Assembly (NCBI GenBank): GCA_963783385.1
Contig: CAWANJ010000004.1
Span: 1 to 43,516 of the forward strand
Length of the DNA: 43,516 nt
Direction of reading: 5' to 3'
Source: an uncultured Gemmatimonadales bacterium
GTDB lineage: Bacteria; Gemmatimonadota; Gemmatimonadetes; Palauibacterales; Palauibacteraceae
Shown here: piece by piece, positions 3,401 through 43,460 of the stretch
Layout of the letters: the number at the start of each line of letters is the position of its first letter
Position numbering within the stretch: position 1 is the stretch's first letter
Position numbers and translations under genes: made by a program
Notes under the pieces: generated by a model
The model's database searches: none
Told to the model about the DNA's origin: nothing
Seen by the model: only the letters and a program-made list of their open reading frames with translations

Positions 3401-3828
3401 GTCGACACGTTGCCGCGCCACGCCCACGAGCCGGTGCCCACGTACACGACGTTGGCGTCCGAGGAGGCCACGGCGATGGCGCCGATGGAGCCCACCCCGA
3501 ACCCGCCGTCCGAGACGTTCGACCAGGACAGACCCGTGTTGGTGGTCTTCCACACGCCTCCGCCCGTGGCGCCCATGTAGAAGGTGCGGTGGTCCCCGTG
3601 GGGGACCCCGGCCACGGCGGTCACCCGGCCGCCGCGGTAGGGCCCTACCATGCGGTAGTCGAGGCCGGCGTACAGCGCCGTGTCGTAGACCGGCTGCCCG
3701 GCCGGGTGGGGCGCCACGCGGGCCGTCTCCTGGGCGGAGGCCCGGGCCGGCGGCAGGGCCGTCAGGAAGGCTAGGGCCGCGGCCAGCGGGAGCGCCGCGA
3801 CGGTGCGTCGGACGAGGGAGGAGGTCAT
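496..3828 (-). CDS. secreted Vps10/sortilin-like BNR (Asp-box) repeat beta-propeller protein, putative glycosyl hydrolase (paralog 1)
   Basis: Signal peptide, 'GPYRGGRVTAVAG', many S/T-x-D-G-G-x-T/S-W Asp-boxes, 'ATQGRSFWILDD' and a helical C-terminus. The ATG at 3828 overlaps the upstream stop (ATGA). Confidence 0.9.
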   Translation of the reverse strand: MTSSLVRRTVAALPLAAALAFLTALPPARASAQETARVAPHPAGQPVYDTALYAGLDYRMVGPYRGGRVTAVAGVPHGDHRTFYMGATGGGVWKTTNTGLSWSNVSDGGFGVGSIGAIAVASSDANVVYVGTGSWAWRGNVSTGDGLYRSTDAGKTWARVGLEDAGSIGAVRVDPNDPDRVYVAALGHPFGPNPTRGVFRSEDGGTTWKKVLFISDSTGVADLSMDPANPRVLYAAAWTSERKPWTIVDGSREGGIWKSTDGGDHWTKLSGGLPDGLLGKIGVAVSPADPDRVYAVITAKEPDGGIWRSDDAGKTWRHVSSDHELTQRGWYYSRIIADPQDPNTVYIPNVGFWRSDDAGKTWQRVRTRHGDNHSLWIDPSEPKVMIEGNDGGAHVTTDGGKTWSTLLNQPTAQFYRVTVDNGFPYRLYGAQQDLGTISVPAWSSGGISPQTQWLDLAGGESGYLALDPDHPDLVYSGSYLGVIDRVDRTTGKVRDVIAYPELTDGVAPKDLKYRFQWNAPILMSRFDSSVVYHAAQVLLKSTDEGRTWTAISPDLTRHDTTTQAIPGGPVQHDHTGVEIYGTIFALAEGTESPDVLWAGSDDGLVHLTRDGGKTWKDVTPPGLPAYSTVNVIAPSPHQAGQAYVTAYRYRMDDWHPYVYETKDWGAHWTRIADGTRGIPAGDPVRVVREDPVRAGLLYAGTEFGMYVSFDDGAHWQTLQQNLPPVPVTDLTVHGSDLVLATQGRSFWILDDVTPLRQLTGAVAKADHYLFEPRAAYRASFRGFRGSEAPESPPGPAVFDLYLASAPAGEVSMEVVDPQGRVAARWSTARKGRSGRGAGSSEGGEEGDFATAGQSGAAAESGDFASWATHSLDLHAGENRLEWDLHYPGPHLVKGAVMDLGYTGGPWAVPGTYTVRVKGDGWSLDRSFDVRKDPRYTDVTPEDLQAEFDLATRVRDSVTAIHDAVRALRSAREQVGHASDRVAHGNFPDSVNSRVKMAADSLRSTLSSLAGQLHNDTIRTGEDGINYPPRIDNHFDFLYGHIHDAYGRPTEGSRTRFADLNAELEPIRAEVERALTDGVSGFNELLRRYGVPPVVVPAEASGPAGTDPAGG

Positions 3829-6800: not shown

Positions 6801-7097
6801 GAAGGTCCGGGGATGGCCGCGGACGCCCGCCACCGCCTGGACGCGCCCGCCCCGGGAGGGTCCCACTTCGCGGTAGCGCAGTCCGGCGTACAGGGCCGTG
6901 TCGAACAGGACGTGGCCGGGGGGGTGGAGAGGCGAGCGGGTCGGCAGGCGGCGCGAGCTCGGCGCGGCGGGCGCCGGAGGGGCCCCGTGCGCTGGCGGCC
7001 CCGCGTACAGGGTGGAGGCCGGACCCCAGGCCAGGACGACCGCCGCGAGCGTCAGTCCGACGCCCGTTCGGACTCCCCAGCCGGGCCGTCCCGTCAT
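3825..7097 (-). CDS. secreted Vps10/sortilin-like BNR repeat protein (paralog 2)
   Basis: Same motifs as paralog 1. ATG at 7097 follows an AGGGAGG RBS, and a signal peptide is present. Confidence 0.9.
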   Translation of the reverse strand: MTGRPGWGVRTGVGLTLAAVVLAWGPASTLYAGPPAHGAPPAPAAPSSRRLPTRSPLHPPGHVLFDTALYAGLRYREVGPSRGGRVQAVAGVRGHPRTFYMGATGGGVWKTTDAGVTWHNVSDGTFAAGSIGALAVAPSDPNVVYAATGEADIRGNASAGRGLYGSTDGGATWRFLGLADAGQVGDLVVDPRDPERVYAAVLGDAFGPSSTRGVFRSEDGGATWEKVLFVSDSTGFIDLALDPSNPRVLYAAAWRAQRKPWTLIDGSREGGVWKTTDGGDHWTELSGGLPTGLVGKIGVAVSPADPDRVWAMVTEEAHDRGGLYRSDDGGASWTRVNRERKLRQRAFYYTHVIADPRDPETVYVLNTSVWRSVDGGRSFRRLRVPHGDTHDLWIDPDDPARMILGDDGGAQVTTNGGRTWSTMLNQPTAQFYRVFVDDEFPYRIFGAQQDNTAIGVPAWTELAPTRFSFWYETGGCESGSVVVDPREPDIVYGGCYSGDLYRFDARTRQAENVNPYPQMQDGRAIRDLKYRFNWNPPLIVSSHDPAVLYYGAQMVLRSSDGGHTWRAISPDLTRHDSATMGYPGGPVQHDITGVETYATLFSLAESPRDSLVLWAGSDDGLVHVTRDGGKSWTDVTPAGLPRLSTVNVIEPSAHAAGRAYLTVYRYRLDDFRPYAYRTEDYGAHWTRIADGTRGIPADDPVRVVREDPERPGLLYAGTEFGMYVSFDDGGHWQTLQLDLPIVPVTDLAVHGTDLVVATQGRSFWILDDVTPLRQIDAELARRAAAPDSGRVFFQPRDAWRTRAQGYGGPAAPEPPPEGAIFDWFFPRAPRGPVTLTIADSSGHTVRSFRSDSSSLPSGAGAHRFTWDLLYPGPRLVPDAVVYYGYAGGPPAVPGSYRATLSADGWSRTRTFRVKEDPRIHATRSELAAQFDLLEAIRDRIQAIHDALRTLRDVRSQAHAAVKRAADAGSLPAADSASISAAASALTDSLGAVEDALIQTRSESGQDPINFESKLWTYYAHLAGTVISADAPPTAGERRRFRDLEAGWTAVRARLDRALHGALPALDRLLSDHDVPAVVVPDRTSSSPESP

Positions 7098-20644: not shown

Positions 20645-21607
20645 GGCTCGCGCCAGGGCCAGGCCGAAGCGATCCTCCTCGTCCGTCTCCCAGCGCTCCA
20701 CCGTGAATCCGCCATCCTCGAGCAGCGCGGTCGCCGAGGCGCGCGTGTACTTGTGGCTGAGCTCGGTGCGGATCGACTCCCCCTCCTCGAACGCCAGCTC
20801 CAGCTCCAGCGAGGGCAGGTGGACGGTCTGGGGGCGGTCCGAGACCAGGTGCATCTCGACCCGGACCTCCTCCTCGTTCCAGGTGGCCCGGTGCCGGAAG
20901 GCGTCCGGGTCGAAGTCGGCGCCCAGCCGGTCGTTCAACACGCGCAGGGCGTTGCGGTTGAAGTCCGCCGTGACGCCGCGCGCGTCGTCGTACGCGGCCA
21001 CCAGCTCCCGGCGGTCCTTCACCAGGTCGAAGCCGACCAGGAAGGCGTCGGACGCCGACAGCAGGCCGCGGACGCGGGCCCCGAACGCCCGGGCCTCGTC
21101 GGGCCGGAAGTTTCCGATCGTGCTCCCCAGGAAGAGGACGAGGCGCGGAGCGCCGGCGAAGGGCAGGTCGAGGTCCTCGTGGAAGTCGGCCACCATCCCG
21201 ACAATGTCGAGGTCGGGATAGCGTCCGGACAGCCGCACCACCGCCCGCTCGATCGCGTCCCGGCTCACGTCGATGGCCGCGTAGGCCTCCAGGCTTCCCT
21301 CTCTCCGGCCGGCGTCGAGGAGGATCTCCGTCTTGCCGGAGCTCCCGGAGCCGAACTCCACCAGGGAGGCCGGCCGGACGTCCTCGACCAGCGACGGTGC
21401 CGTTCGGAGCAGGATCGAGCGCTCGGCCCGGGTCAGGTAGTACTCGGGGAGGCGGGTGATCTCCTCGAACAGCTTCGAGCCCCGCGCGTCGTAGAAGTAC
21501 TTGGGCGGCAGGGTCCTGGGTCGGCGCATCAGGCCCTCCCGCACGTCGGCCACCAGGGCGCGGCGCAGGTCGGCCGGCTCGATGAAGGTCCGGATCTCAA
21601 TGCTGAT
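20585..21607 (-). CDS. egtD: L-histidine N-alpha-methyltransferase EgtD
   Basis: 'LPPKYFYDARGSKLFEEITRLPEYYLTRAE', 'EFGSGS', 'FLGSTIGNF', 'AYDDARGVTADFN' and 'IRTELSHKY'. The GGAGG RBS points to an ATC codon at 21607, so the start is uncertain. Confidence 0.95.
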   Translation of the reverse strand: MSIEIRTFIEPADLRRALVADVREGLMRRPRTLPPKYFYDARGSKLFEEITRLPEYYLTRAERSILLRTAPSLVEDVRPASLVEFGSGSSGKTEILLDAGRREGSLEAYAAIDVSRDAIERAVVRLSGRYPDLDIVGMVADFHEDLDLPFAGAPRLVLFLGSTIGNFRPDEARAFGARVRGLLSASDAFLVGFDLVKDRRELVAAYDDARGVTADFNRNALRVLNDRLGADFDPDAFRHRATWNEEEVRVEMHLVSDRPQTVHLPSLELELAFEEGESIRTELSHKYTRASATALLEDGGFTVERWETDEEDRFGLALARALAARSSAARSQPPRSAAAS

Positions 21608-21766
21608 GCTCGTCCTCCGATCCTCGAGGCCGGTCCCGGGCGGCGGAACGCTCCCGGGACCGCCGCGGGCTCTCGGCACGTGGAATGCACGCCATCGATC
21701 GGGACAACGTACGGCGGAGCGCGACGGCCGCCACGCACCGTGCAACGATCGAGCCCGGGAGGACGC

Positions 21767-22277
21767 ATGTTCGCAGAGTCTGCTCGAGGAAGCTCTCGAC
21801 GCCTGGACGGACGCTCGGGAGGGGGTGATCGCCGAGCTGGAGAACATCCCCGGCGATCGCTACGATTTCCGTCCGGCCGAAGAGGTACGCAGCGTGGCCG
21901 AGCTCGCCTGCCACATCATGGAGGTGTCCGAGCTCATGGTGGGTGAGCTGACCCGGGAGGACACGGATTTCCACCGGGCGTCCTTCCCGGAGCTCCTGCG
22001 AGAGCACGCCCGTGACGTCCAGGGGCTGACGGAGAAGGAGGAGATCCTCGAGACCATGGAGCGCACCCTCGAGCGCGGCCGAGCCCGCTTCCGAGAGGTG
22101 GGCGAGCTCCACATGCTCCAGCTCATCGAGCGCTTCGACGGGGAGCTCGGCACGCGCATGGCCTGGATGCACCACGGGATCGCGCAGGAGATGTATCACC
22201 GGGGCCAGCTGTGCACGTACGAGCGGCTCATGGGGCTCGTGCCCGTTCTGACGAAGCGGATCCGCGGCGAAGACTGA
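21767..22277 (+). CDS. DinB family protein (one extra base just after the ATG)
   Basis: 'YDFRPAEEVRSVAELACHI' and 'QEMYHRGQL..Y.RLMG.VP'. GGAGG RBS before the ATG at 21767. Confidence 0.85.
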
Positions 22278-22290
22278 CACGGGAGGAACG

Positions 22291-23651
22291 GTGGCGACTC
22301 GAGCGAGGGCCGGGAGCGAGCCGACCCATGGAGCGTCGGCGCAGGCGGCGGCCACCGACGGCCCGGCCGCCGTCGCGGACGGCCTGTCGGGGCGGTACCG
22401 CCGGGTCCGGGCGTTCACGGAGGCGCTGTGCGAGCCGCTGGCGACCGAGGACTACGTCGTCCAGACGATGGAGGACGTCAGCCCCACCAAGTGGCACCTG
22501 GCGCACGTGAGCTGGTTCTTCGAGACCTTCCTTCTGCGTGAGAACCTGCCCGACTACGAGCCGATCGACGAGACGTACGCCTACCTGTTCAACTCCTACT
22601 ACGTGCAGGCGGGCGAGCGGCACTGCCGCGACCGGCGCGGGTGGATCTCGCGGCCCACGGTCGAGGAGGTGTACCGCTACCGCCGGCACGTGGACGAGCA
22701 CATGCAGCGGCTCCTCGAGCGGGCTGCCGCGGACGAGGACCTCGCGGGCCACGATCGAGCCCGTGGTCACGATCGGGATCCACCACGAGCAGCAGCACCA
22801 GGAGCTGCTCCTCACCGACATCAAGCACGTGTTCTCGGTGAACCCGCTGCGGCCCGCCTACCGGGCCGAGCCGCTCGAGAGCGGCAGCCGCACCCCGGAG
22901 CTCGCCTGGCGCGCGTTCGAGGGGGGGCTGGTGCGGATCGGGCACGAGGGCGAGGGCTTCGCCTACGACAACGAGGGCCCGCGCCACCGCGCTTTCCTGG
23001 AGCCGTTCCTCCTGGCCGACCGGCTGGTGACCAACGGCGAGTTCCTGGCGTTCATGGAGGACGGCGGCTACCGGACGCCCGAGCTGTGGCTGTCGGACGG
23101 CTGGGCCGCCGCCCGGGAGAAGGACTGGACCGAGCCCTTCTACTGGGAGGAGCGGGGCGGCGAGTGGTGGCAGTTCACCCTGTCCGGCATGCGCCCGGTC
23201 GATCCGCACGAGCCCGTCTGCCACCTGAGCTACTACGAGGCCGAGGCCTACGCGCGCTGGGCCGGGGCGCGCCTTCCCACCGAGGAGGAGTGGGAGGTGG
23301 CGGCGAGCGCCCGGCCGATCGCGGGGGAACCTGGTCGAGTCCGGACGCCTGCACCCGGCCCCGGTCTGCGCGGAGGCGTCGCCCCCCGACCCGTCCTCCG
23401 GTCCCCCCCTCCGCCAGCTGTGGGGCGACGTGTGGGAGTGGACGCGCAGCCCCTACTCGCCCTACCCGGGTTACGAGGCGCCGCCGGGAGCCCTGGGCGA
23501 GTACAACGGGAAGTTCATGAGCAACAAGTTCGTGCTGCGGGGCGGCTCCTGCGCCACCTCGGCCACGCACATCCGGGCCACCTACCGGAACTTCTTCCCG
23601 CCCGACGCCACGTGGCAGTTCACGGGGCTCCGGCTGGCGAGGGACCCGTAG
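22291..23651 (+). CDS. egtB: ergothioneine sulfoxide synthase EgtB (two frameshifts, near 22748 and 23326)
   Basis: '[15 protein letters not shown]', 'FNSYY', iron motif 'HEQQHQE' and an FGE-like domain ('RLPTEEEWE', 'GDVWEWT', '[13 protein letters not shown]'). Confidence 0.93.
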
Positions 23652-24373
23652 CCGGGGAGCCCGTCGTAGCGTTCCGCGAGGTGGCGCTCCGCCGGGGCGG
23701 ACGCGCCGTCCTCGACGGCCTCTCCTTCGAGGTCGCCCCCGCGGAGACCTTCGTCCTGGTCGGGCGGAGCGGGGCGGGGAAGTCGAGTGTCCTCCGCCTC
23801 GCCAACCGCCTCCTGGAGCCCGACGCCGGCGAGGTGCGCGTGAGCGGACGCGACGCGGCCGACTGGGACCCGATCCGGCTCCGCCGCAGCACCGGCTACG
23901 TCCTGCAGGGCATCGGGCTCTTCCCCCACTACACGGTGGCTCGCAACGTGGGCCTGGTGCCCCGGCTGCTGGGCTGGGAGGAGGCCCGGGTCGAGGCGCG
24001 GGTGCGGGAGCTCCTGGACGTGGTCGGCCTCCCGTTCGCGGAGTTCGGGGAGCGCTTCCCGGCCTCCCTGTCGGGGGGCCAGCGCCAGCGGGTGGGCGTG
24101 GCGCGCGCGCTGGCCGCCGACCCGCCGCTCCTCCTGTGCGACGAGCCGTTCGGGGCCCTGGACCCGATCACGCGCCGGGAGCTCCAGGACGAGTTCCGCG
24201 CCCTGAGCCGCCGGCTGGGGAAGGCGCTCCTGTTCGTGACCCACGACGTGCGGGAGGCCCTGGCGCTCGGCGACCGGATCGGGCTCCTCGAGGGCGGACG
24301 GCTGGCGTTCGAGGGCTCCCCCGACGCCTTCCGGGCCAGCGACCACCCGCTCGTCCGCGCCTTCCTGGGGTGA
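23648..24373 (+). CDS. ABC transporter ATP-binding subunit, osmoprotectant/quaternary-amine (OpuA/EgtU-type) family
   Basis: Walker [24 protein letters not shown], '[13 protein letters not shown]' and FVTHD. The start is approximate. Confidence 0.92.
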
Positions 24374-26155: not shown

Positions 26156-29100
26156 ATGACAGAGCGCGGGACGCTGTACCGCCGGGTGGGGCTCCTGGGA
26201 CTCGCCGCCGCGAGTCTCGCGAGCCTCGGGGCCGCTCCACTCGCCGGCGAGCGCCCGCCCGGACACGCCGGGCGCCCGCCCGCCTCCATCGCGAGCTGGT
26301 CGGCCCGCGCCCCGGCCACGTCGTGGCCCCGCGCCCGCAGCCATGTCGCGGCCCGTGCCCTCGCCGCCCCCGATTCGGTCCCGCCCGACCTCCTCTCCGG
26401 CCTGGTGTGGCGGAACATCGGGCCGCTCCGGGCGGGGCGCGTGGCCGCGGTGAGCGGGGCGATCGGCGAGCCGGGCGTGTTCTACGCCGGCATGCCGGCC
26501 GGGGGCGTATGGAAGACCGACAACGCCGGGGTGACCTGGCGGCCCATCTTCGACTCGGTCCAGTCGGTCTCCTCGGTGGGGGCGGTCGCGGTCGCGCCCT
26601 CTGACGCGAACGTCGTTTACGTGGGCACCGGCGACATCATCACGGGCGGCAACATCGACGAGGGCGATGGCGTCTACAGGTCGACCGACGCCGGCCGCAC
26701 CTGGCGGCAAATCGGGCTCGACCGCACCAAGCAGATCCCTTCCATCGTGGTCGATCCGTCCGACCCGAACCTGGTGCTGGTCGGCGCGCAGGGGGACATC
26801 CACCACGCGAGCGACGCGCGCGGCGTGTTCCGGAGCGCGGACGGCGGCCGGACGTGGACGAAGACGCTGTTCGTGAACGACTCGACGGGGATCGAGAAGC
26901 TGGCCCGGGCCTACGACGCGCCGAAGGTCGTGTTCGCGATGACCGTCCGGCACTACCGGGCGCCGGGCGCTGCCGCGCGGGAAGTTCTACTTCGGCGCGG
27001 AGACCGGGACGCGGCTGTACAAGTCGACCGACGAGGGCGCGACCTGGCGCCGGGTCACCGGCGGCGGGCTGCCGAAGCTGGAGGGCCGCATGTCCGTGGC
27101 GGTGGCCATGCACACGAACGCGCAGCGCGTGTTCGTGATCGGCGACTCGGGCCTGTACCGCTCGGACGACGGCGGATCCGACCTGGCGCCGCATGGACCC
27201 CGGCCGACCCGCGCATCCGGACGGGGCAGGGCGGCTACAACTGCGGCGTGTACGTGAGCCCCTCGAACCCCGACGTCGTCTACACGGTCAACACCTCGAG
27301 CTACGTGTCCACCGACGGCGGGAACACGTTCACGGGTTTCCGGGGCGCGCCGGGCGGCGACGACCCGCAGCAGATGTGGATCGACCCCACCGACGGCCAG
27401 CGCATGTTCCTGGGCATGGACCAGGGCGCCACCGTGAGCCTGGACGGCGGCCGCACCTGGAGCCCGTGGTACAACCAGTCCACCGAGCAGGTCTACCACG
27501 TCTCGACCGACAACTCGTGGCCGTACTGGGTGTACGCCCCGCAGCAGGACGCCGGCGCCATCCGGGTCCGGAGCCGCGGCAACTACGGCGAGATCACGCC
27601 CCTGGACTGGAGCCCGGTGGGCGGGTGGGAGTGGGGCACGGTGATCGCAGACCCGCTCGACCCGAACGATCGTGTACAGCAGCAACGGCGGGGCGCCGTC
27701 CTACGCCAGCATCACCCGCATCACCTGGCCCAGCGAGCAGACCGTCAACGTGAGCCCGCAGGTGGACCCGGAGGCCGACCTCCGCTCCACCTCCACCAAC
27801 CCGATCGTGTTCGCGCCCTGGAACCCGCACGAGCTCCTGGCCGGCTTCCAGGTCCTGATGGCGACGACCGACGGCGGCGCGCACTGGCGGCGGCTGAGCC
27901 CGGACCTGGGCGTGCCGGCCGGCGCGAAGCCGCCGGCCGAGGGAGCGGAGGCGGGTCGGGCCGGCCCGGGCGCTCGGGAAGGCGCGATCGAGTCCATCTC
28001 CCCCTCCACGGTCGAGGAGGGGCTCATGTGGGTCGGGACGAGCAACGGGCTCGTGAAGCTGACGCGCGACGGGGGGAAGAGCTGGGAGGACGTGTCGATC
28101 CCGGACCTGCCCGACTCGACCTTTTCCGACATCTCGGCCATCGACGCCTCCCACCAGGACCCAGCCGAGGCCTACGTGGCCGTCGACGCGCACGGTCTCG
28201 GCGACTACGCGCCCTACCTGTACCGGACGCGGGACTACGGGAAGACGTGGACGAAGATCGTGGACGGGCTGCCCACGGGCCTCCCGAGCGGCAGCTTCGC
28301 CCGGGTGATCCGCGCCGACACGAAGAAGCGGGGGCTCCTGTTCGCGGGGACCGAGAGCTCCATGTACGTGTCCTTCGACGACGGCGACCACTGGCAGTCG
28401 CTACGGCTGAACCTGCCCGACGACCTCGTTCCGCGACGCGACCATCCACGGGAACGACCTGGTCGTGGGCACGTACGGGCGCGGCATCTGGATCCTGGAC
28501 GACCTCTCGCCGCTCCGGCAGATGACGGCCTCCCTGGCCTCGGAGCCCGCGCACCTGTTCGCGCCGGGCGACGCGGTGCGGGTGCGGCGGAACGTGAACC
28601 GGGACACGCCGTTCCACCCCGAGGTCCCGCACTCCCTGAACCCGCCCCCGGGCGCCCTGATCTACTACTCCCTGAGACAGGCGCCGCAGGGCACCGTGAC
28701 CCTGGACGTCCTGGACGCGGACGGGCACGTGGTCCGCCACATGTCGAGCGCCCCGGTGAAGCCGGGACCCGAGTACCGGTATCCGCCCGAGCCGAACCAT
28801 TGGCTCCAGTGGCCGGCGCCCCTGCCGACCAACGTGGGACTGAACCGGGTGAACTGGGACGTCCGCTACGACGATCCGCCGGTTTTCGAGCACTCCTTCG
28901 ACATCAACGCGAACCCGGGCCTCACGCCCTCCTCGCCCCAGGGGCCGCTGGCCCTGCCGGGGACCTACACGGTCCGCCTCACGGTGGGCGGGCGCAGCTA
29001 CACGCAGCCGGTGAAGGTGACCAACGACCCGCGCTCGCCGGCGAGCGCGGCGGACCTCGAGGCGCAGCACGCCCTCGAGATGCAGAGTCTACGCCGGGAT

Positions 29101-29566
29101 ACGGGAGGCGTGGCACGGCCACGCGCAGGCGGCGGCCATGGACTCGGCCGTCGTTCGCGCGGCGGGGCAGGGCGCGCCCACCGCCGTCGCCCGGGCCGCG
29201 AAGGCGTTCGAGGCGCGGCTCGACTCGGTGGCCGGGCGTGCGCCACAGCCGGGTGGCTCCGGAGGGCCCTCCGGCCGCTCCGGCCCGCCGCCCCCCGACT
29301 TCGTGCGGGAGAACGGCGCCCTGGTCCAGCAGCTCGAGCGCCTGGAGACCGGCGACCTCGCGCCCACCGAGGCCATGTTGGGCGCGTACGCCCACGAGTG
29401 CGGGCGCCTGGCGGGCGTCGTGACCCGCTGGCGGACGCTCAACGGGGCGCCGCTCGAGGCGCTGAACGAGGCGCTGCGCGGCGCTCACCGGCCTCCGGTC
29501 GAGGTGGCCTCGCCGCTCCCGGCGGTGCTGGAGTGTGGCGTCGCGGGCGGAGGGGCGGAGGACTGA
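26156..29566 (+). CDS. secreted Vps10/BNR repeat protein (paralog 3, multiple frameshifts)
   Basis: Signal peptide from the ATG at 26156, 'WRNIGPLRAGRV', Asp-boxes, 'GTYGRGIWILDD' and 'LPGTYTVRL'. The pieces lie in ORFs 25055, 27672, 28465 and 29138. Confidence 0.85.
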
Positions 29567-31795: not shown

Positions 31796-31821
31796 AACAG
31801 GAGAGTCGGGCGGGTTGTTCC
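31796..31821 (-). promoter_or_regulatory. ECF promoter GGAAC-N18-GTT upstream of the DUF302 gene
   Basis: Minus strand GGAAC aacccgcccgactctcct GTT. Confidence 0.75.
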
Positions 31822-31879
31822 AGGGCCGCACGACGACGCCGGTGGAGCCGGTGCTGGATGGCGCCGCCGGGACCGTGGG

Positions 31880-32488
31880 CGACCGGGCGGTCTCGCGGGG
31901 CACCGCCTCGACGTCGAAATCGAGACGCAGCTCGTCCTTCACCTTGATGGCGCCGAACCCGAACGAGTAGGGCTCGACCCCGAAGTCCGTCTGCCGGAAG
32001 TGAAGGGTGCCACGGGCGACGAGCGTGTCCCCGCGGCTCTCGAGCCGGGCCACGACGGCCACGGTCCGGGTCGAATCCTCCAGGGTGAGCGAGCCCGTCA
32101 CCCGCAGCCCACCGGCCACCGGCTCCACGCTCCGCGAGACGAACCGGATCTCCGGGTAGCGCCCGGCGTGCAGCACGTCCTTCAGCATGTGCTCGCGGAT
32201 GGCGTGCAGCTGCGCCGGGCTGGCGTCGACGGTCCGGACCTCGAGGCTGTCGACCGGAACGACCACGTCGAGGCGATCGGTGGAGGAGTCGCCGGGACGG
32301 TACTCGAGGTCGGCCCGGAAGGCCCCGGCCACGATTCGGTGCTCGTGCGAGAGGGCCGCCAGGAAGCCGCCCGCCTCGCTGGTCACCTCGAAGCGGCTCG
32401 AGGGCAGGACCGTCCAGGCGGACGCCGTGTCGACGGCCGACCCGCTCAGCGTGCAGGCTCCGGCCAGCAGGATCATCGTGCACATCAT
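31880..32488 (-). CDS. YceI family periplasmic lipid/quinone-binding protein (true stop not visible)
   Basis: Signal peptide, 'VLHAGRYPEIRF', 'VTGSLTL' and 'QTDFGVEPYS...IKVKDEL'. GGGAGG RBS. The frame runs on to 31031, so the 3' end is approximate. Confidence 0.85.
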
Positions 32489-32551
32489 TGTAGGGCCTCC
32501 CTCGCTCCGTGGTGTCTCCGTCCGGAACCGGCCGCCCATGGGCCGCCGCTC

Positions 32552-32581
32552 TTGACGCGGAAAGACGACCGGTCGTATTCT
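32552..32581 (+). promoter_or_regulatory. sigma70 promoter TTGACG-N18-TATTCT with embedded TetR operator 1 (AGACGACCGGTCGTAT, 32563-32578)
   Basis: The -10 ends 6 nt before the tetR ATG, implying a leaderless mRNA. The opposite strand carries TAGAAT facing yceI, and the palindrome sits between -35 and -10. Confidence 0.8.
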
Positions 32582-32587
32582 ACAGCC

Positions 32588-33178
32588 ATGATCCGCATGA
32601 AGCACGCAGAGCGCGTCCGGGAGCGTCTCCTCGACGAGGGCGTCGCGGCCTTCCTCGAGTTCGGCTTCCATGGTACCGGCCTCAAGCGGGTACTCGACCG
32701 CGCCGGCATCCCGAAGGGCTCCTTCTACAATTACTTCGACAGCAAGGAGTCGTTCGGGGCCGCGACCATCCGGCACTTCGCCGAGGGCGTCCGGTCCCTG
32801 CTGGCGCGCGAGCTGGCCCGGGCGCCCGACCCCCTCAGCGGTCTCCGGGCTTTCTTCGGAGCCATGATGGAGCAGTTCGAGGAATCGGGTTACGTGGGCG
32901 GGTGCCTGCTGGGGAACCTCGGAGGCGAGCTCGACGGCAGCGCGGTGTGCCGCGACGCCCTGGCCGGGTCCATCCAGAGTCTGTGCGGCGAGATCCGCGA
33001 CGCCCTCGGCGACGCCCAGGAGCAGGGTCTGGTGCGCCGGGACATTGACGCGCAGGAGCTGGCGTGCCTCCTCGTCGAGACCTGGGAGGGCGGCGTCATC
33101 CGGATGAAGATCGAACGGTCCCTGGAACCCGTGCGACGCTGTCAGCGTCGATTGTTGGACGACTACTTCCTGCCCTGA
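32588..33178 (+). CDS. TetR family regulator, NemR-like, five Cys
   Basis: HTH 'GFHGTGLKRVLDRAGIPKGSFYNYFDSKE', plus 'GGCLLGNL' and 'WEGGVIRMK'. Confidence 0.93.
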   Translation: MIRMKHAERVRERLLDEGVAAFLEFGFHGTGLKRVLDRAGIPKGSFYNYFDSKESFGAATIRHFAEGVRSLLARELARAPDPLSGLRAFFGAMMEQFEESGYVGGCLLGNLGGELDGSAVCRDALAGSIQSLCGEIRDALGDAQEQGLVRRDIDAQELACLLVETWEGGVIRMKIERSLEPVRRCQRRLLDDYFLP

Positions 33179-33226: not shown

Positions 33227-33304
33227 ATTCATTGCTCCGCCGCGCGTGCCTTTCCGGCCGCGCGCCGGAAGGTCGGCTCCTCCACCTGAATCTGGATGGC
33301 CCGG

Positions 33305-33988
33305 ATGAGCAAAGCAGCCCACGATCCGATGGAGCGCTCCGGAGCCGCCGGAGGCGACGCGGACCTGCGTGCGCGATTCATGCGGCTTCTCGATCCGGTG
33401 TTGCCGCGCGCCTATGCCGCCGCCCGGCACCTGACGCGCGACCCGCACGACGCGGAGGACCTGGTCCAGGAGGCGGCTCTCAAGGCCTGGAACGGCTTCG
33501 ACGGGTTCGAGCCCGCCACCAACTTCCGAGCCTGGTTCCTGAAGATCTTGACCCACGCATACTACGACTCGTACCGGCGACGGCGACGATCTCCGAGCAC
33601 GGTCTCCATCGACGGTGAGCCCGACCACTTCCTGTACCACAAGCTGGCCACGGCCCGGGCGGCGCGGGGTCCGGAGAACCCCGCGGGGGCCTTCCTGCGG
33701 CGCCTGGACGGTCGCCACATCGCGGCGGCCCTCTACGCGCTCCCGGACGAGTTCCGCGCCGCGGCGGTGTTGTACTTCGTGGAGGACCTCTCCTACCCGG
33801 AGATCGCCGAGGCGCTGGGCTGCCCGATCGGAACGGTGCGCTCGCGCATCCACCGGGGCCGGAAGCGCCTCCAGGTGGCGCTGTGGAGGGTGGCGGAGGA
33901 CCACGGTCTGGTCGGGTCAGCGGCGCGCGGCGAGGGGAAGGGGCCGGACGTCGCCCCGCAGCGGACGGCCGGCGGCGGACGGCCGTGA
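33305..33988 (+). CDS. ECF sigma-70 factor, SigR/SigH-like (sigma 2)
   Basis: 'DAEDLVQE', 'TNFRAWFLKIL' and 'YPEIAEALGCPIGTVRSRIHRGR'. Start could be 33296, 33305 or 33329. Confidence 0.92.
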   Translation: MSKAAHDPMERSGAAGGDADLRARFMRLLDPVLPRAYAAARHLTRDPHDAEDLVQEAALKAWNGFDGFEPATNFRAWFLKILTHAYYDSYRRRRRSPSTVSIDGEPDHFLYHKLATARAARGPENPAGAFLRRLDGRHIAAALYALPDEFRAAAVLYFVEDLSYPEIAEALGCPIGTVRSRIHRGRKRLQVALWRVAEDHGLVGSAARGEGKGPDVAPQRTAGGGRP

Positions 33989-33999
33989 GGTCGGGCAAC

Positions 34000-34293
34000 C
34001 GGAGATCAGCCTTCGGAACGGCTCGCCGTAGCGTCGGTCGCTTCCGCGCGGTCCCGCCTTCAGGGCGGACTCGATCCTCTCCCGTAGTCCCGGGGGGACG
34101 TCTGTCTTCCGGATCCTCTCCTTCAGGCCCATCCAGCAGCGTCCGTTCGAACTCGAGAACCTCGGCGCAACGGTCGCAGCTGGCCAGGTGCTCCTCGACG
34201 CCCCGCGCCTCCTCGGGCGACAGCTCGCCGTCCACGTACGAAGTCCACCCGACGGCGTACGTCTTCGCAGCTGTAACCAGCCATCGGCCCCAT
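34000..34293 (-). CDS. zf-HC2 anti-sigma factor 2 (two frameshifts), convergent on sigma 2
   Basis: 'MAGYSCEDVRRR' / 'YVDGELSPEEARGVEEHLASCDRC' / 'VPPGLRERI'. The last frame stays open to 33917, so the 3' end is approximate. Confidence 0.8.
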
Positions 34294-34357
34294 CCTGACT
34301 CCGGCCTGTCGTTTCGGCGGGGAGTCTTCTCGTGATCGTCCGCGCGACGCGTCCCAG

Positions 34358-34569: not shown

Positions 34570-35788
34570 ATGTGTTGGACGCGTTCGTGGCTTGCGACGA
34601 CAGCCCTGGCGGGGGCCCTGCTCCTGGCGCCGGCGGGCTCGAGCGCCCAGCCCGTGACAGGGCGGACGCCGAATCTGGCGGGCACGTGGACGGCCTCCCC
34701 GGGGCAGCTGTTCTTCGACTTCTCGCATCGGTTCCAGGTGGCGGGGTCGGACGCCGACATCGGAGACCTCTTCGGCGACGGCAAGGTCGTCAACTACCCG
34801 ACCTTCCAGCTCGACCTGGGGATGGCGCCCGGGCTGATGGCCGGGTTCCGCTACAGCACGCGCTCGCTGCTGGCCGGCGGCTCGAACGAGTGGCAGCCGT
34901 ACGCCACGTGGTCGCCGGGCGGCCGGCGCGCCGGGCGAGCCCTCTCGGTGGCGCTGACGGCGGCCTGGAACGGGGCCACGCACAGCCTGGACGGGGAGGC
35001 GACGGGGGCGACGCGCTCCTCGGACCCGTCCACGTCCTCGGCGCGGCGCGCGGCTTCGGGGACGGGTTCGAGCGGCCGGGCGGGCAGGACCGGCCCGCCT
35101 CCCTCGCCCTGGCGGGCGGGGTGGGACTGGAGCTGAACCGGTACGTGACCCTGGCCGGGGACGTCTCGGACCTGGTGGCGGGGATCGACGGTCCGGCCGC
35201 GTGGAGCGCGGGGCTGGAGCTCGCGATCCCGTACACTCCGCACACGCTGACCCTGATGGCCACGAACGTGTCCAGCGGAACGCTGGAGGGGACCTCGACC
35301 GGCGTGGCCCACACGGTCTACTGGGGGTTCGAGTTCACCGTGCCCTTCAGCGGCTTCGCCCGCTGGGGCCAGCTGGTGCACCCGGGCGAGCTCGGGGGGA
35401 GGCTCGTCGGAAGGCTCCGCGAGCGGAGGGGCTGGGGGCGAAGCCTCCGGCGCGGGAGCCGGCCTGGTGGCCCCGTCCGGCGACGCGTCCGCGGTCCGGC
35501 GTGCCGGTCGGCGGACCCGGCACGGTGGTCGAGATCGAGGTCAAGGGGCTCGCCTTCCATCCGGACACGGTACGGGTGCGTCCCGGCACCACCATCCGGT
35601 GGGTGAACCACGACCCGCTGGCCCACTCCAGCACCTCGAGCGACGGGCTGTGGGATTCTCCGCTCGTCGACCCGGCCGCCAGCTGGCAGCGCGCCTTCGA
35701 CCGGCCCGGACGCTTCGCCTACCACTGCACTCCGCACCCCTTCATGAAGGGGCTGATCATCGTCTCCGACACGGGAGTCCAGCCATGA
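34570..35788 (+). CDS. DUF5777-like outer-membrane beta-barrel fused to a C-terminal amicyanin-like cupredoxin (frameshifted)
   Basis: Signal peptide, 'LFFDFSHRF', amphipathic strands, 'HTLTLMATN', a Gly/Ser linker, then 'WVNHDPLAHS...YHCTPHPFMKG' type-1 Cu ligands. Confidence 0.75.
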
Positions 35789-36220
35789 CACGTGCGCTAC
35801 CGATCCGTCGATCCGCCGCCACGATTCGCGGCCTGGTCGTCGCCGCCGCTCTTCGCCTGGCCGCCTGCGGGGGCGGGAGCACCTCGCCGACGCCAGAATC
35901 CGCCCCCCCGCCCCCGCCTCCGGGCGGCGGCTCGGGCGACGTGCAGATCGACATGCAGAACATCGCCTTCAAGACGTCCAACGGGACGGACTCGATCACG
36001 GTGGCGGCGGGCTCGACCATCCAGTGGACGAACCTGGACCAGGGCGATCCAGCACTCGGCCACCAGCGACTCGGTGCCCTCGGGAGCGTCGAGCTTCGAC
36101 TCGAGGCTCCTGAGCTATCAGGAGAGCCAGACCTACACGGTCGACAAGCCGGGGCGGTACGTGTACCACTGCACCGTCCATCCTGGGCAGATGGCGCACG
36201 CCGTGATCATCGCCCAGTGA
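35785..36220 (+). CDS. cupredoxin (plastocyanin/azurin family) lipoprotein (frameshift near 36045)
   Basis: Lipobox 'LAA-C', Pro linker and 'WTNLD..QHS...YHCTVHPGQM'. ATGA overlap with the previous gene. Confidence 0.85.
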
Positions 36221-36293: not shown

Positions 36294-37082
36294 TCACCCG
36301 CGCTGTCGCAGGGCGTCGAGCGCCTTCCTCGCGTTGTCGTTCTTCGGGTTCAGGCGGAGCGACTTCTGGTAGCTTTCGATCGCCTCGCGGGTCTTCCCCG
36401 CGGCGGCCAGGGCCTCGCCGAGGCTGTCCCACACGTTCCAGGAATCGGGATGGAGGACCGTGTTCAGCCGGAAGATCGCGATCGGGTCGTCTGGGTTCCG
36501 GCCGCGGCGAAGCAGCTCGTAGCCCAAAGCGTTAAGCCCCCGCTCGGGAAGGGTGGCCGGCCGACCGGACGCGGAGTCGGCCCGCTGGAAGAGAGCGACG
36601 GCCTCTTTCGTGAAGCCCATGCGCGCCAGGTCGAGGAAGCGCTGCTGGCGGGTCACGAAGTCGCTGGTCGAGGGCCGGCTCAGCGTCCACACGTAGGAGG
36701 CGATGGCCCACAGCTGCTCCCGGTCCAGGTGCATGCCGCCCTCCGGATTCATCTCGAACGGCCGGGGCGTCACGGCCCTGAAGTCGGCCTTCTGGACGCC
36801 CCAGAAGATGGTGTGCCGGATGCCCTGGATGTCCCCGGGACTGTGCAGCCACTCGGCGTCGGAGAGGTTCGGCGCCCGGCGGCCGGTGCCACGGCCGCCC
36901 ACGGCGTGGCAGGCGACGCAGCTCCCGCCGTTGAACAGGTCGCTTCCGGCCATGACCCGCGCGGGCGTGACGCTGTCCGGCACGGTCATGGCGGAATCCG
37001 CAGGGAAGGTTTGCTGGGCGTCGGCCGCGGCCGGCAGCGCCGCCCCGAGGATCAGGAGGACGGCCATCACGCGCATGCGCAT
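36294..37082 (-). CDS. exported monoheme cytochrome c with C-terminal TPR domain
   Basis: Signal peptide, CVACH, 'APNLSD.EWLH', a candidate axial Met and TPR 'NVWDSLGEAL...YQKSLRLNP'. Confidence 0.88.
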   Translation of the reverse strand: MRMRVMAVLLILGAALPAAADAQQTFPADSAMTVPDSVTPARVMAGSDLFNGGSCVACHAVGGRGTGRRAPNLSDAEWLHSPGDIQGIRHTIFWGVQKADFRAVTPRPFEMNPEGGMHLDREQLWAIASYVWTLSRPSTSDFVTRQQRFLDLARMGFTKEAVALFQRADSASGRPATLPERGLNALGYELLRRGRNPDDPIAIFRLNTVLHPDSWNVWDSLGEALAAAGKTREAIESYQKSLRLNPKNDNARKALDALRQRG

Positions 37083-40749: not shown

Positions 40750-41384
40750 CGCGGTCCTCCTTGGGGTGAAGGTTGCCAGAGAAGCATCCGCACCAGTGCG
40801 TCCACTTCGGCGTCGCTGAGCTGCGTGAACGCCGGCATCATGAAGTGCGTATGCTCGAACCCGGGAGCGCGGTACGCGCCGGGATCGCGGATGCTCTCCC
40901 GGACGTAGGCCTCCGGCGTCGTCGCGTGGCCGGTGTACCCTGGATCGTGGATGCGGCGCGCGGCGTTCACGCGCAGGCTGTCGTGGTCCGGACCGAAGAT
41001 GCCGGCCGTCCCCGCGAGCGTGTCGCGGTGGCAGGTCCCGCAGTAGTTCGTCCGGTACACGCGGATCCCCTCCGCGACCACTGCCGGGACGGCCGGCATC
41101 GTCCAGGGTGCCGGGCCGCCCGAAGGTGCCGGGCCGCTCGAACCGGCGGCCGACGCGGTCGCGTCCTTCGACCTGCCGGTCGACGCGATGCCGGCGTTCG
41201 GCCTTCCGGCCTCAGGAACCGCGGCCACGGCCGCGTCGGTGGACCCCACCGTCCCCGGCGCCTCGGCCCCAGGTCTCGAATCACAGGCCGCTACGACCAG
41301 GAGGAGCCCGGTGACGAGGCTGACCGGCATCGTCGCTCCGCGCCCCATCCTCCGCGGCCGCCGGGACCGGACGCGCTTCGGCAC
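40746..41384 (-). CDS. monoheme cytochrome c lipoprotein
   Basis: Lipobox 'VAA-C', CGTCH, 'GP' and 'YVRESIRDPGA...MMPAF'. Start could be 41330. Confidence 0.88.
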   Translation of the reverse strand: MPKRVRSRRPRRMGRGATMPVSLVTGLLLVVAACDSRPGAEAPGTVGSTDAAVAAVPEAGRPNAGIASTGRSKDATASAAGSSGPAPSGGPAPWTMPAVPAVVAEGIRVYRTNYCGTCHRDTLAGTAGIFGPDHDSLRVNAARRIHDPGYTGHATTPEAYVRESIRDPGAYRAPGFEHTHFMMPAFTQLSDAEVDALVRMLLWQPSPQGGPR

Positions 41385-41387
41385 GGC

Positions 41388-43460
41388 TCAGGAACCCACG
41401 GTGAGGCGGAGGTCGATGGCGCGGCCCATCCCGGGACGGATCATGCGCACGCTCTCGCTGGTGAAGGGATCGTAGAGCAGGTAGCCGTAGCTGCCGTACT
41501 CGGCGTCGAAGATGTTGCGGACGGAGAAGCGGGCGCCGAGCCGGCCGACGCGCCACCCCACCGCGGCGTCGAAGCGGGAGCTCCCGGAGAGGGCCTGCGT
41601 GTTCTCGTCGTCGAGCCACACCCGGCCCATGGCCCGGTGCGTCAGCGTGAGAGACACGGGCTCGGCGACGGTGATGCGGGCCGTCGTGGTGAACGCGCTC
41701 TCGGGGATGTTCTTGAGCTGGTGGCCGCGGTTCGCCGAGGTCCGGAAGACTGCCCGGCCGAGCGTGGCGGCATGCGTGACCTCGATCCTCCGGGAGAGGA
41801 CGACGCGCGCCGACAGCTCCGCGCCCGTGTGCCGGCTCGCCAGGATGTTGCCGTAGCGGTACGTGAGGATGTCGAAGTCGATCTCGTCGTCCAGCCACTG
41901 CCGGTAGGCGGAGAGCGACAGCTCGGCGTAGGGCCCGCCGCCGCCCAGCGGGAGCCGCTGGTAGACGCCGGCCTCGACCGCGGTGGAGCGCTCCGGCCGG
42001 AGCTCGCCGTTGGCGATGCTGATCGTCTGGCCGGGCGCCCCGGTCGGGATGGCGCGCGCGTCGAAGAGCTGGTCCAGCGTGGGCGCCTTGAACGCGCGCG
42101 TCCACGACACGTACACGTTGCCGGCGCTGGCGGGGTCGTCGAGGTAGGCGAAGTTCGCGCCGAGCCGCGGCGACCACTGGTGGAAGGAGCGCGACCCGCC
42201 CGAGGCCGGCGCCTCGTCCGTGGGGAGCACGGCGTCGAACCGGATCCCGGCGACGAGTCGGAGCCGCTCGATCGGCCGGCCGCTCAGCTCGCCGTGCAGG
42301 CCGAGCTTCCACTGGTGCCCGTCGCCGGAGGTGAGGAGCGCGTCCGTGCCGGGCGTCGTGTAGCGGGTCCGGAACGAGGCGCCCTCGGCCTCGGCGCCGA
42401 CGTGGAGCAGGGCGGGGCCGAGCGGCTCGGCGAGCTGCGTGCGCGCCCACAGGCCGATCTCGCGGTCGTCCTGGTCCTGCGTGTCGCCGAAGCTCGGCGT
42501 GAGCAGCAACGTTCGCGTCCGCTGCTGGTCGTACCACCGCAGGCGCACGGCCCCGTCCAGCCGCTGGCCGCCGGACCAGGCATGCCGCCCCCGGACGCTC
42601 GCCTCCGCCATCTTCCGGGTGCGCTGATCGCCCGCGAAGGCCGGATGGCTGCCCGCCGGTCGAAGGCGCCGTTCGTCTCGGGAAGCGGGCCGGGATCCTG
42701 GTCGAACCGGCGGCTGAAGGCGAGCCGTCCCGACAGCCCGTCCTCGCCGGCCGCCGCCGCCGGGCCGAACGCGAGCGATGTCGTGAGCTGGTTCGAGCGG
42801 GAATGCGCGCGGAAGCCGTCGTCGCGATCGAAGTCGACCGTCGCGTCCAGCTCGCCCGAGCCGAGCCCCGAGCCGGCCGAGGCGTGCACGCCCGCGCCGC
42901 TCCACGACGAGACGGTCACGGCCGTCCGGCCGGCGAGCCCGGCGTGCGGCGCCGCCGCCGGGTCACGACGTCGATGACCGCGCCGAGCGCGGCGTCGCCG
43001 TAGGAGACGGAGGCGGAGCCGCGCAGGACCTCGATGCGCTCGATGTCCTCGAGCGGATCCGGCTCCGCTCGACGAGCCCGGTTCGGCCATTGTTCGCCCG
43101 CACCCCGTCGATGTGACAGCACGTAGGAGGCTGCCTCCCGCCGAAGAAGCCCGCGCGATCGCGATGGCAGCCGCCCGGAGCCGTCCTGCTCGAGGAAGAT
43201 GAGTCCGGGCACGGTCCCCAGCGCCTCGGCGAGGATGTGCGCCGGCAGCGCGTCCAGGTCGGCGCGCGTGAGCAGGCTCCGTGGCCGCGACAGTGCTGCG
43301 GAGCGTGGTCGCGTAGGTCGGCCACGACCACCAGCGCGTGCCCAGCCCGGTAAGGCTGCGGGAGGCGGCGTGTTCGGCGTCGCCTGCACGAAGGACGGGC
43401 GCCGGGCGGGGCAGCAGGGCGCCGCTCGAAGGCACAGGGTGGTGCAGATCGGGACCTCAC
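41388..43460 (-). CDS. TonB-dependent receptor (many indels toward the 5' end)
   Basis: Plug 'IERIEVLRGSASVSYGDAALGAVIDVVT' and barrel 'SPRLG', 'RAFKAPTL', 'LRPERS', 'VRNIFDAEY', 'PGMGR'. Probable GTG start at 43460. Confidence 0.88.

Follow-up and report, generated by a model that had tools for sequence, protein, structure and literature searches.

A two-gene module of Gemmatimonadota joining a predicted outer-membrane beta-barrel to an amicyanin-like copper domain and a lipoprotein cupredoxin

The stretch of DNA analysed here (43,516 nucleotides, hereafter the window) is contig C4 of a nine-contig, 3.54-Mb genome assembly of an uncultured bacterium, which the database names of homologues place in the Gemmatimonadota. 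It contains a module of two genes. Gene 1 encodes an outer-membrane-type beta-barrel of 12 predicted strands that is fused, through a low-complexity linker, to a type-1 copper (cupredoxin) domain resembling amicyanin, and gene 2 encodes a second cupredoxin with the features of a lipoprotein. We lean, with limited assurance, towards a role of the fusion protein as an outer-membrane-tethered periplasmic electron carrier that works with the lipoprotein cupredoxin. Positions below are those of the whole window, and residue numbers of barrel and copper sites are those of P0001, the orthologue in a genome of the same genus (G003).

As assembled, gene 1 spans three reading frames, the second from about 35018 and the third from about 35400-35500. 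Alignment with two genomes of the same genus revealed insertions of two, one, one, and one bases that were unique to the window. These bases were looked up in the Logan contigs of four public sediment-metagenome runs (X1-X4), which belong to one study, possibly represent the source sample, and hold 35-52% of the sampled words of the region. In every run covering the respective site, the contigs were without the two bases at 35018 (35018-35019) and without the single bases at 35387, 35495, and 36045; they are 95-99% identical to the window, not identical, and may come from sister strains or from the same sample. With the extra bases omitted, gene 1 is one open reading frame (ORF) of 404 amino acids, 85% identical over its full length to P0001, and gene 2, which holds the site at 36045, encodes 144 amino acids. 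Furthermore, all 11 loci of relatives fetched by DNA similarity hold a single ORF whose alignment to P0001 starts within the first 27 residues of the latter and reaches at least residue 384, and one ORF combines the barrel motifs with a match to the cupredoxin hidden Markov model in 71 of 72 loci found by a pattern scan of species-representative genomes. The barrel-cupredoxin fusion is thus confirmed as a single gene, as an earlier interpretation of the letters of the window (hereafter the sequence-only reading) had reconstructed it across the indels; the corrected sequence keeps barrel and cupredoxin together instead of splitting them into two genes.

The frame breaks of gene 1 and gene 2 are likely assembly errors, because other genes of the window are frameshifted too. 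The orthologue of a 1102-amino-acid BNR/Sortilin-repeat protein of G003, located at 26156-29548 on the plus strand, maps in four frame pieces (three breaks). Similarly, only 17 of 94 orthologue residues map to an anti-sigma gene upstream of the module, which is split over two frames in the ORF list. The rate is about 7 breaks in 15 kb, or about one indel per 2 kb. That both genes are pseudogenes in this genome, with real frameshifts, is scarcely credible: the three breaks in gene 1 and the one in gene 2 of the assembled window would fit such decay, but every Logan contig covering a break is without the extra base or bases (the caveat of sister strains or a shared sample applying here as well), and a similar break rate in other genes is what uncorrected assembly errors would produce. 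No RNA run occurred among the 17 public runs that match the region.

The fusion recurs in related genomes. A word-indexed search returned 459 clusters at an E-value up to 0.001 (among 8000 scored candidates), the best 120 of which are 350-461 amino acids long and all contain PF00127. Database names of the homologues are only 'plastocyanin' or 'cupredoxin family protein', leaving the barrel unannotated. The 72 loci of the pattern scan all lie in metagenome-assembled genomes, nearly all of them labelled Gemmatimonadota, with three bins carrying other phylum labels. At an E-value up to 1e-10, 40 of 151 genomes in an even sample of the phylum had the barrel, 32 of them among the 71 genomes of family f3. 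Leaving aside G096 and G133, which are unpublished, gives 38 of 149. The short-read contigs of 9 of 13 relatives (loci L017-L025) end within the requested 8 kb beyond the module, perhaps because assemblies break at tandem cupredoxin genes or at low-complexity Pro/Gly DNA.

The signal peptide, barrel, Gly/Ser linker, and copper domain with the loop CTPHPFM that the sequence-only reading had distinguished in gene 1 are all present (Table 1). The residues QP at the mature N-terminus are invariant among 87 homologues. The barrel-only profile A2 matches two pieces of the window (34648-35025 and 35013-35369), and the conserved motifs of the barrel comprise the N-terminal segment QPxTxRTPNxxGxW as well as HRF, NEW, TPHT, and WGFEFTVPFSGFARWG. 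An AlphaFold2 model of P0001, based on 87 homologues, had a mean predicted local distance difference test (pLDDT) score of 83.5 and a predicted template modelling score (pTM) of 0.74. It displays 12 strands between residues 47 and 259 (barrel pLDDT mostly 82-96), a short helix after strand 12, a low-confidence stretch at 263-299 (pLDDT below 50 at 275-299), and a cupredoxin sandwich at 310-390.

Comparison of barrel residues 45-260 of this model with 48,161 solved chains gave 12-stranded outer-membrane barrels only as the best structural matches, as expected for the outer-membrane-type barrel that had been proposed. These were VhGalP (Z 18.2, root-mean-square deviation (rmsd) 2.5, 176 residues aligned), KdgM (Z 17.9, rmsd 2.5, 166 aligned), FapF (Z 17.6, rmsd 3.4, 198 aligned), NanC (Z 16.7, rmsd 3.0, 178 aligned), and a COG4313 channel (Z 16.4, rmsd 3.7, 198 aligned). 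Autotransporter and intimin barrels followed at a Z of about 15 (EstA 15.5, 5g26 14.9, AIDA-I 14.9; rmsd 3.2-4.1, 176-192 aligned), and the copper channel PcoB (7pge) ranked 28th (Z 11.6, rmsd 3.8, 169 aligned). Foldseek likewise matched FapF, together with a designed 12-stranded barrel. The conserved N-terminal segment aligns with the plug or hatch regions of FapF and of FadL-type matches.

At the family level, the barrel appears to be a fringe relative of Pfam DUF5777 (PF19089), and the term 'DUF5777-like' used in the sequence-only reading holds marginally. In its favour, a precomputed PF19089 match is present in 37 of the best 120 homologue clusters, DUF5777 accounts for 26 of the 30 nearest Atlas clusters, and two proteins, P0124 (30.5 bits) and P0244 (33.8 bits), pass PF19089 and match barrel profile A2, bridging both profiles. 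Against it, the window copy and P0001 fall below the PF19089 cut-off. Pfam found no barrel family in the three frame pieces of the window and no PF19089 match in these pieces or in P0001, P0002 reached only 10.4 bits versus a gathering cut-off of 23.1, and among 26 related genomes only the orthologues in two (G014 and G011) passed. The Pfam models for KdgM and CopB gave no match to P0001 or P0002 at E-values up to 1. A search for longer fused forms (474-2000 amino acids) of the canonical DUF5777 protein P0244, itself a weak search, found none.

Conservation, scored by region as majority fraction over the 87 homologues, was 0.64-0.94 for barrel regions, 0.69 for the copper domain, and 0.19 for the linker. 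Peaks were found in the turn IPYTPH (0.94) and strand 12 (0.93), followed by strand 4 (0.85) and, at 0.80 each, the N-terminal segment and the stretch behind strand 12; the predicted external loops L1, L2, and L6 scored 0.68-0.73. The linker is hypervariable in sequence and 18-70 amino acids long (median 25). Residues H53, E107, S139, D141, D197, P223-H224, and N232 are kept even in distant barrel-only members. Because the barrel is conserved as strongly as the copper domain, loops included, it is too conserved to be an anchor alone and probably does more. Most of the conservation peaks would sit at the periplasmic mouth, if both barrel ends are periplasmic.

The C-terminal copper domain of gene 1 is amicyanin-like, as the sequence-only reading had described it, and has all four type-1 ligands. 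Pfam Copper-bind/Cupredoxin_1 domains were found in the C-terminal pieces of both genes, PF00127 matching the gene 1 domain with an E-value of 8.2e-10 and the gene 2 piece with 0.0028; the intact gene 2 orthologue P0123 gave 5.8e-7. The copper-domain frame of gene 1 reads YHCTPHPFM, and the ligands H344, C378, H381, and M384 are invariant in the 87 homologues. The only Cys of P0001 lies in the copper loop, and P0001 contains no CXXCH. The nearest solved relatives of the gene 1 domain are amicyanins (E-value 5.9e-22) and the C-terminal cupredoxin of a Nitrosopumilus protein (9cck). Structurally, it matches amicyanin 1aac (Z 13.0, rmsd 1.6, 83 aligned) and the cupredoxin-fold copper chaperone CupA (Z 10.6). 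It is amicyanin-like in form but probably not amicyanin by role, because neither the window, as noted before, nor the genome gave a match to a methylamine dehydrogenase family: none occurred among the window ORFs, and PF02975 and PF06433 had no match in the genome (G000, 92% complete), no control genome giving a match either. More distant members (L075, L076, L101, and others) have a longer, plastocyanin-like copper loop (C-x-P-H-x4-M) instead of CTPHPFM.

Gene 2 is translationally coupled to gene 1, its start overlapping the gene 1 stop by ATGA (35785-35788). Its product has a lipobox LAAC at residues 25-28 (Cys28), a Pro/Gly spacer, and the copper loop CTVHPGQM, so that the coupled lipoprotein cupredoxin of the sequence-only reading was borne out. 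Among solved structures, P0123 is closest to 9cck, amicyanins, and NirK copper domains, with no azurin listed at E-values up to 0.01. Its standing as the partner of the fusion gains from the 72 loci, as a further cupredoxin ORF adjoins the fusion in 41 of them, in most cases directly downstream and on the same strand. Of 48 such adjacent ORFs, 26 had a flagged lipobox and several more showed one by eye; many encode lipoproteins with Pro/Gly spacers. In loci L058, L059, L060, L062, L063, and L078, the second cupredoxin has an Ig-like N-terminal region that replaces the lipobox-plus-spacer form.

The identity of the C-terminal carrier varies among sister proteins. A search of 1.84 billion representatives with the barrel-only profile A2 retrieved 276 proteins at an E-value up to 0.001. 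Among the best 150 of these, 66 have a cupredoxin domain, 4 (P0187, P0219, P0228, and P0259, with CXXCH at 288-344) have a monohaem cytochrome c at the equivalent C-terminal position, one fragment has a Rieske piece, and one protein (P0134) has a TonB-dependent receptor in front, the remainder being barrel-only proteins or fragments. A profile of the barrel-only members returned mostly cupredoxin fusions again, together with two more cytochrome c forms, and a metagenome scan with the barrel-only protein P0160 gave three loci, all of them fused forms with a second cupredoxin adjacent. The cytochrome c forms retain the barrel motifs TPN..G.W, F.F.HR, PHT, and GF.FTVP, with an Ala/Pro-rich linker before the CXXCH. 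In the shallow model of P0228 (pLDDT 65, 6 sequences), a region of about 12-13 strands (13 elements listed) is joined to a helical domain by a disordered linker. These sequences suggest that the property kept at the C-terminus is a small one-electron carrier, and not copper as such. Protein P0134 (1045 amino acids, on a 1.1-Mb contig) consists of a TonB-dependent receptor (Plug and barrel), a 12-stranded barrel, and a cupredoxin, which may be a real triple fusion or a read-through.

The presence of a monohaem cytochrome c at the equivalent place of sister proteins makes electron transfer a better fit than copper trafficking. Of the two functions between which the sequence-only reading had wavered, electron transfer at the outer membrane is hence retained and trafficking disfavoured. 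Copper homeostasis, with the cupredoxins binding copper as cargo or buffer and the barrel forming a copper channel of the PcoB/CopB kind, would be in line with PcoB among the fold matches, with CupA among those of the copper domain, and with an ECF (extracytoplasmic function) sigma and zf-HC2 anti-sigma pair upstream in this genus. It is nevertheless very unlikely: all four type-1 ligands are invariant, as they are in electron carriers, the sisters have a cytochrome c instead of the copper domain, the P0001 sequence has no Met/His-rich stretch, and no copper ATPase, CusCBA, or multicopper oxidase neighbour recurs in the 72 loci or occurs among the window ORFs.

In the electron-carrier role towards which we lean, the gene 1 product would be one exported, OmpA-like protein, composed of an N-terminal 12-stranded barrel and, behind a short conserved stretch, a flexible linker (18-70 residues) by which the amicyanin-like type-1 copper domain would be tethered on the periplasmic side of the outer membrane. 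Translational coupling would provide the gene 2 product as a second type-1 cupredoxin, placed on a lipid anchor by its Pro/Gly spacer. The two tethered copper centres could then pass single electrons from periplasmic or inner-membrane donors to a reaction at or near the outer membrane, and the conserved periplasmic mouth of the barrel could be the docking site of the copper domain. Judged by topology, the most likely place of the copper domain is the periplasm. Known even-stranded barrels have both ends in the periplasm, and the haem of cytochrome c is attached in the periplasm.

The opposite placement, in which the barrel exports its C-terminal domain through its pore and displays a blue-copper protein on the cell surface, like the inverse autotransporters intimin and invasin, is hard to sustain. 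The order of the parts (barrel first, passenger last) is shared with such proteins, strand 12 is followed by a short helix, and the fold matches include 12-stranded barrels of autotransporters and intimin. However, these barrels score below KdgM, FapF, and NanC, the linker is hypervariable and of low confidence, unlike a conserved pore-threading segment, and the cytochrome c of the sister proteins, its haem attached in the periplasm, should not pass a narrow pore. The alignment of the N-terminal segment with plug and hatch regions also suggests an occupied pore.

Several points weigh against a tethered periplasmic carrier as the whole explanation. Firstly, the periplasmic placement is drawn from the two general rules given above, that even-stranded barrels have both ends in the periplasm and that the haem variants need periplasmic haem attachment. 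Secondly, the predicted docking of barrel and copper domain is a weak pass. Complex prediction of the barrel (27-268) with its own copper domain (303-397) gave an interface score (ipSAE) of 0.53, versus 0.18 for the best of three controls, with runs agreeing in at least 20% of the contacts and a partner pLDDT of at least 87. The docking mark is reached by 116 of 157 solved complexes and by 2 of 215 mismatched pairs, and 18 of the 157 solved complexes and both passing mismatches do so at 0.60 or under. Thirdly, no oxidoreductase or other enzyme recurs beside the gene in the 72 loci. Fourthly, the barrel was found in 4 of 15 genomes with a bona fide NirK (TIGR02376) versus 40 of 151 overall. Fifthly, all members come from uncultured genomes. 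Lastly, a plain anchor would not call for a barrel whose conservation, in the loops too, equals that of the copper domain. As to NirK itself, the barrel occurred in 22 of 53 genomes with any NirK-like match (E-value up to 1e-45) versus 18 of 98 others, an excess confounded by family f3 and not taken as a link; bona fide NirK does not track the barrel.

Alternatively, the barrel itself may be the working redox site, which the carrier feeds or drains, making the protein a copper-based, 12-stranded counterpart of Cyc2. Such a barrel would oxidise or reduce a substrate that enters it or that resides in the lipid phase of the outer membrane, for instance Fe(II), Mn(II), Cu(I), or a quinone or lipid radical. 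We regard this as unlikely. The conservation of the barrel at the level of the copper domain, its predicted external loops L1, L2, and L6 included, would be explained by it, and the set H53/E107/S139/D141/D197/P223-H224/N232 resembles a metal or substrate site. The swap between copper and haem while the barrel motifs stay, as well as the weak docking pass (0.53 versus 0.18), also agree with it. Yet the barrel has no known cofactor motif and P0001 no Cys outside the copper loop, 12-stranded barrels of this kind have narrow pores, and the 72 neighbourhoods show no link to iron, manganese, or copper genes. A further-reaching version, to which we give slightly less credence still, would make the barrel a new outer-membrane redox protein, whose conserved His, Glu, and Asp residues hold a metal or a lipid-phase substrate and whose swappable carrier (copper, haem, perhaps Rieske) wires this site to the periplasm. 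A two-tether relay, completed by the lipoprotein cupredoxin with its polyproline spacer, would then move electrons across the periplasm, no diffusible carrier being needed. If true, this would be an unstudied class of small barrel-based electron outlets, distinct from Cyc2 and MtrCAB.

Table 1. Features of the two-gene module and of flanking genes, in positions of the window
Feature	Positions	Strand	Basis and remarks
Gene 1, barrel-linker-cupredoxin fusion	34570..35788	+	ORF list, alignment, Logan contigs, single ORFs of relatives; start ATG 34570, stop TGA 35786-35788
Sec signal peptide, 26 amino acids	34570..34647	+	Read in translation; ends SSA, followed by QP
Predicted 12-stranded outer-membrane beta-barrel, DUF5777-related	34648..35369	+	Model, fold matches, profile A2, conservation
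Low-complexity Gly/Ser/Ala/Pro linker	35370..35527	+	Low pLDDT, hypervariable; contains two extra bases
Amicyanin-like type-1 copper (cupredoxin) domain, His...Cys-x2-His-x2-Met	35528..35764	+	PF00127, ligand invariance, amicyanin match
Gene 2, lipoprotein cupredoxin	35785..36220	+	Lipobox LAAC, Pro/Gly spacer, loop CTVHPGQM
ECF sigma factor	33296..33988	+	Sigma70_r2 and r4_2 (Pfam); upstream of gene 1
Small zf-HC2 anti-sigma gene	33917..34300	-	Divergent from gene 1; frameshifted; L003 orthologue PF13490, E-value 1.5e-13
Cytochrome c-TPR protein	36294..37082	-	Cytochrom_C (E-value 5.1e-11) and TPR; convergent with gene 2

The genes flanking the module vary among relatives. Besides the further cupredoxin ORF, nothing recurs widely in the 72 loci, an Lrp/AsnC regulator being found in 10 of them. 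The ECF sigma factor recurs in 7 of the 72 loci and belongs to the context of this genus only. For the convergent cytochrome c-TPR protein, which the sequence-only reading had put forward as a partner, the relatives give no support: in G003, other genes separate it from the module by about 4 kb, the G001 contig does not have it next to the module, and no cytochrome c cluster recurs among the 72 loci. A YceI-domain gene (minus strand) and a TetR regulator (plus strand) at 31805-33175 lie directly upstream of the sigma/anti-sigma pair. The YceI gene is 2 kb upstream, and the equivalent place in G003 holds a 200-amino-acid gene whose product is 84% identical to the corresponding part of the window. 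YceI beside the module was seen within this genus only, and among the 72 loci no cluster of YceI proteins is present in as many as 4. Another genome of the genus (G002) contains two diverged copies of the module (C85:11712-13093 and C4:70942-72549), with 77% and 73% DNA identity to the window, respectively.

Elsewhere in the window, two tandem genes on the minus strand (535-3852 and 3861-6929) encode proteins of about 1,000-1,100 amino acids each with Sortilin-Vps10 and BNR repeats. The region 20654-24367 contains a set resembling ergothioneine synthesis, with Methyltransf_33 (histidine-specific methyltransferase) followed by DinB and FGE-sulfatase domains; its last open stretch continues into an ABC ATPase and may hold a further frame error. 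At 40779-43275 (minus strand), a second small cytochrome c adjoins a TonB-dependent receptor that is split into Plug and barrel pieces.

Gemmatimonadota are abundant in soils and sediments and few of them have been cultured, and the barrel gene occurs in roughly one in four of the genomes sampled from the phylum. The wiring of type-1 copper or haem c to a barrel in the outer membrane implies an electron path, respiratory or protective, that ends there and that current models of these organisms do not contain. Were the barrel redox-active, it would represent a third architecture for outer-membrane electron transfer, beside Cyc2 and the porin-multihaem complexes. The module consists of two genes only, and its copper domain offers an optical and electron paramagnetic resonance (EPR) handle for a direct test. 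The literature search returned no paper on DUF5777. Under the terms porin-cupredoxin, fused cytochrome-porin, or Gemmatimonadota plastocyanin/cupredoxin, the available parts of the papers described no barrel-cupredoxin fusion. Judged by its available part, the one paper that joins cupredoxin, Gemmatimonadota, and the outer membrane is not about the gene 1 protein, and a Sideroxydans paper deals, in the part available, with other cupredoxins.

Among known proteins, the copper domain shares the loop CTPHPFM with the amicyanin of Paracoccus (1aac, 2gb2), which is its best sequence match and a close structural match. Amicyanin, however, is a free periplasmic protein of 105 residues that serves methylamine dehydrogenase, whereas the domain described here is the C-terminus of a barrel fusion of about 400 amino acids. 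A second comparison concerns the lipid-modified azurin (Laz) of Neisseria (3ay2), which we take to be an azurin held at the membrane by a lipid anchor. It is likewise a tethered blue-copper carrier, and gene 2 shares its plan of lipobox, spacer, and cupredoxin. Laz is of the azurin type (Z 8.7 to the gene 1 domain), whereas the domains of the module appear to be of the amicyanin/plastocyanin type, and the anchor of the gene 1 protein is a whole barrel.

The KdgM/NanC porins and FapF share the 12 strands of the barrel and provide the best fold matches (Z 16.7-18.2), but they are without a redox domain and display no detectable sequence relation (no Pfam KdgM match at E-values up to 1). DUF5777 stands for a membrane beta-barrel of about 250 residues, comparable to the 12 strands over residues 47-259 here, the window copy and P0001 falling below its cut-off. 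With the inverse autotransporters (type Ve), the protein shares the order of its parts, and its barrel matches that of intimin (5g26, Z 14.9), but its linker is hypervariable and of low confidence. PcoB/CopB (7pge, Z 11.6) stands below many other 12-stranded barrels, and no CopB Pfam match was found.

The porin-cytochrome conduits (MtrCAB, PioAB/MtoAB), according to the available part of the source, consist of a large separate barrel around a decahaem wire (PMC13741234). They resemble the module in that redox proteins are placed at an outer-membrane barrel, whereas here a small barrel is fused to a single-centre domain that would lie outside it. The proposal of the sequence-only reading that the module is a copper analogue of such conduits was not supported: a small, 12-stranded barrel is too narrow to sheathe a cupredoxin, no cofactor motif is seen in it, and no multihaem gene occurs among the window ORFs.

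In concept, the nearest described protein would be Cyc2 of Acidithiobacillus, Mariprofundus, and Gallionella, in the available text a fused monohaem cytochrome-porin Fe(II) oxidase with an N-terminal CXXCH and a 16-stranded barrel (PMC13741234). In A. ferrooxidans, again following the part of the source available, Cyc2 passes electrons to the cupredoxin rusticyanin (PMC10367259). The gene 1 protein differs in that its carrier is a type-1 copper domain, C-terminal on a long flexible linker, in its 12 strands, and in having no CXXCH; even in the cytochrome c forms of this family, the haem sits C-terminally. What it has in common with Cyc2 is that a one-electron carrier domain and an outer-membrane barrel are parts of a single polypeptide.

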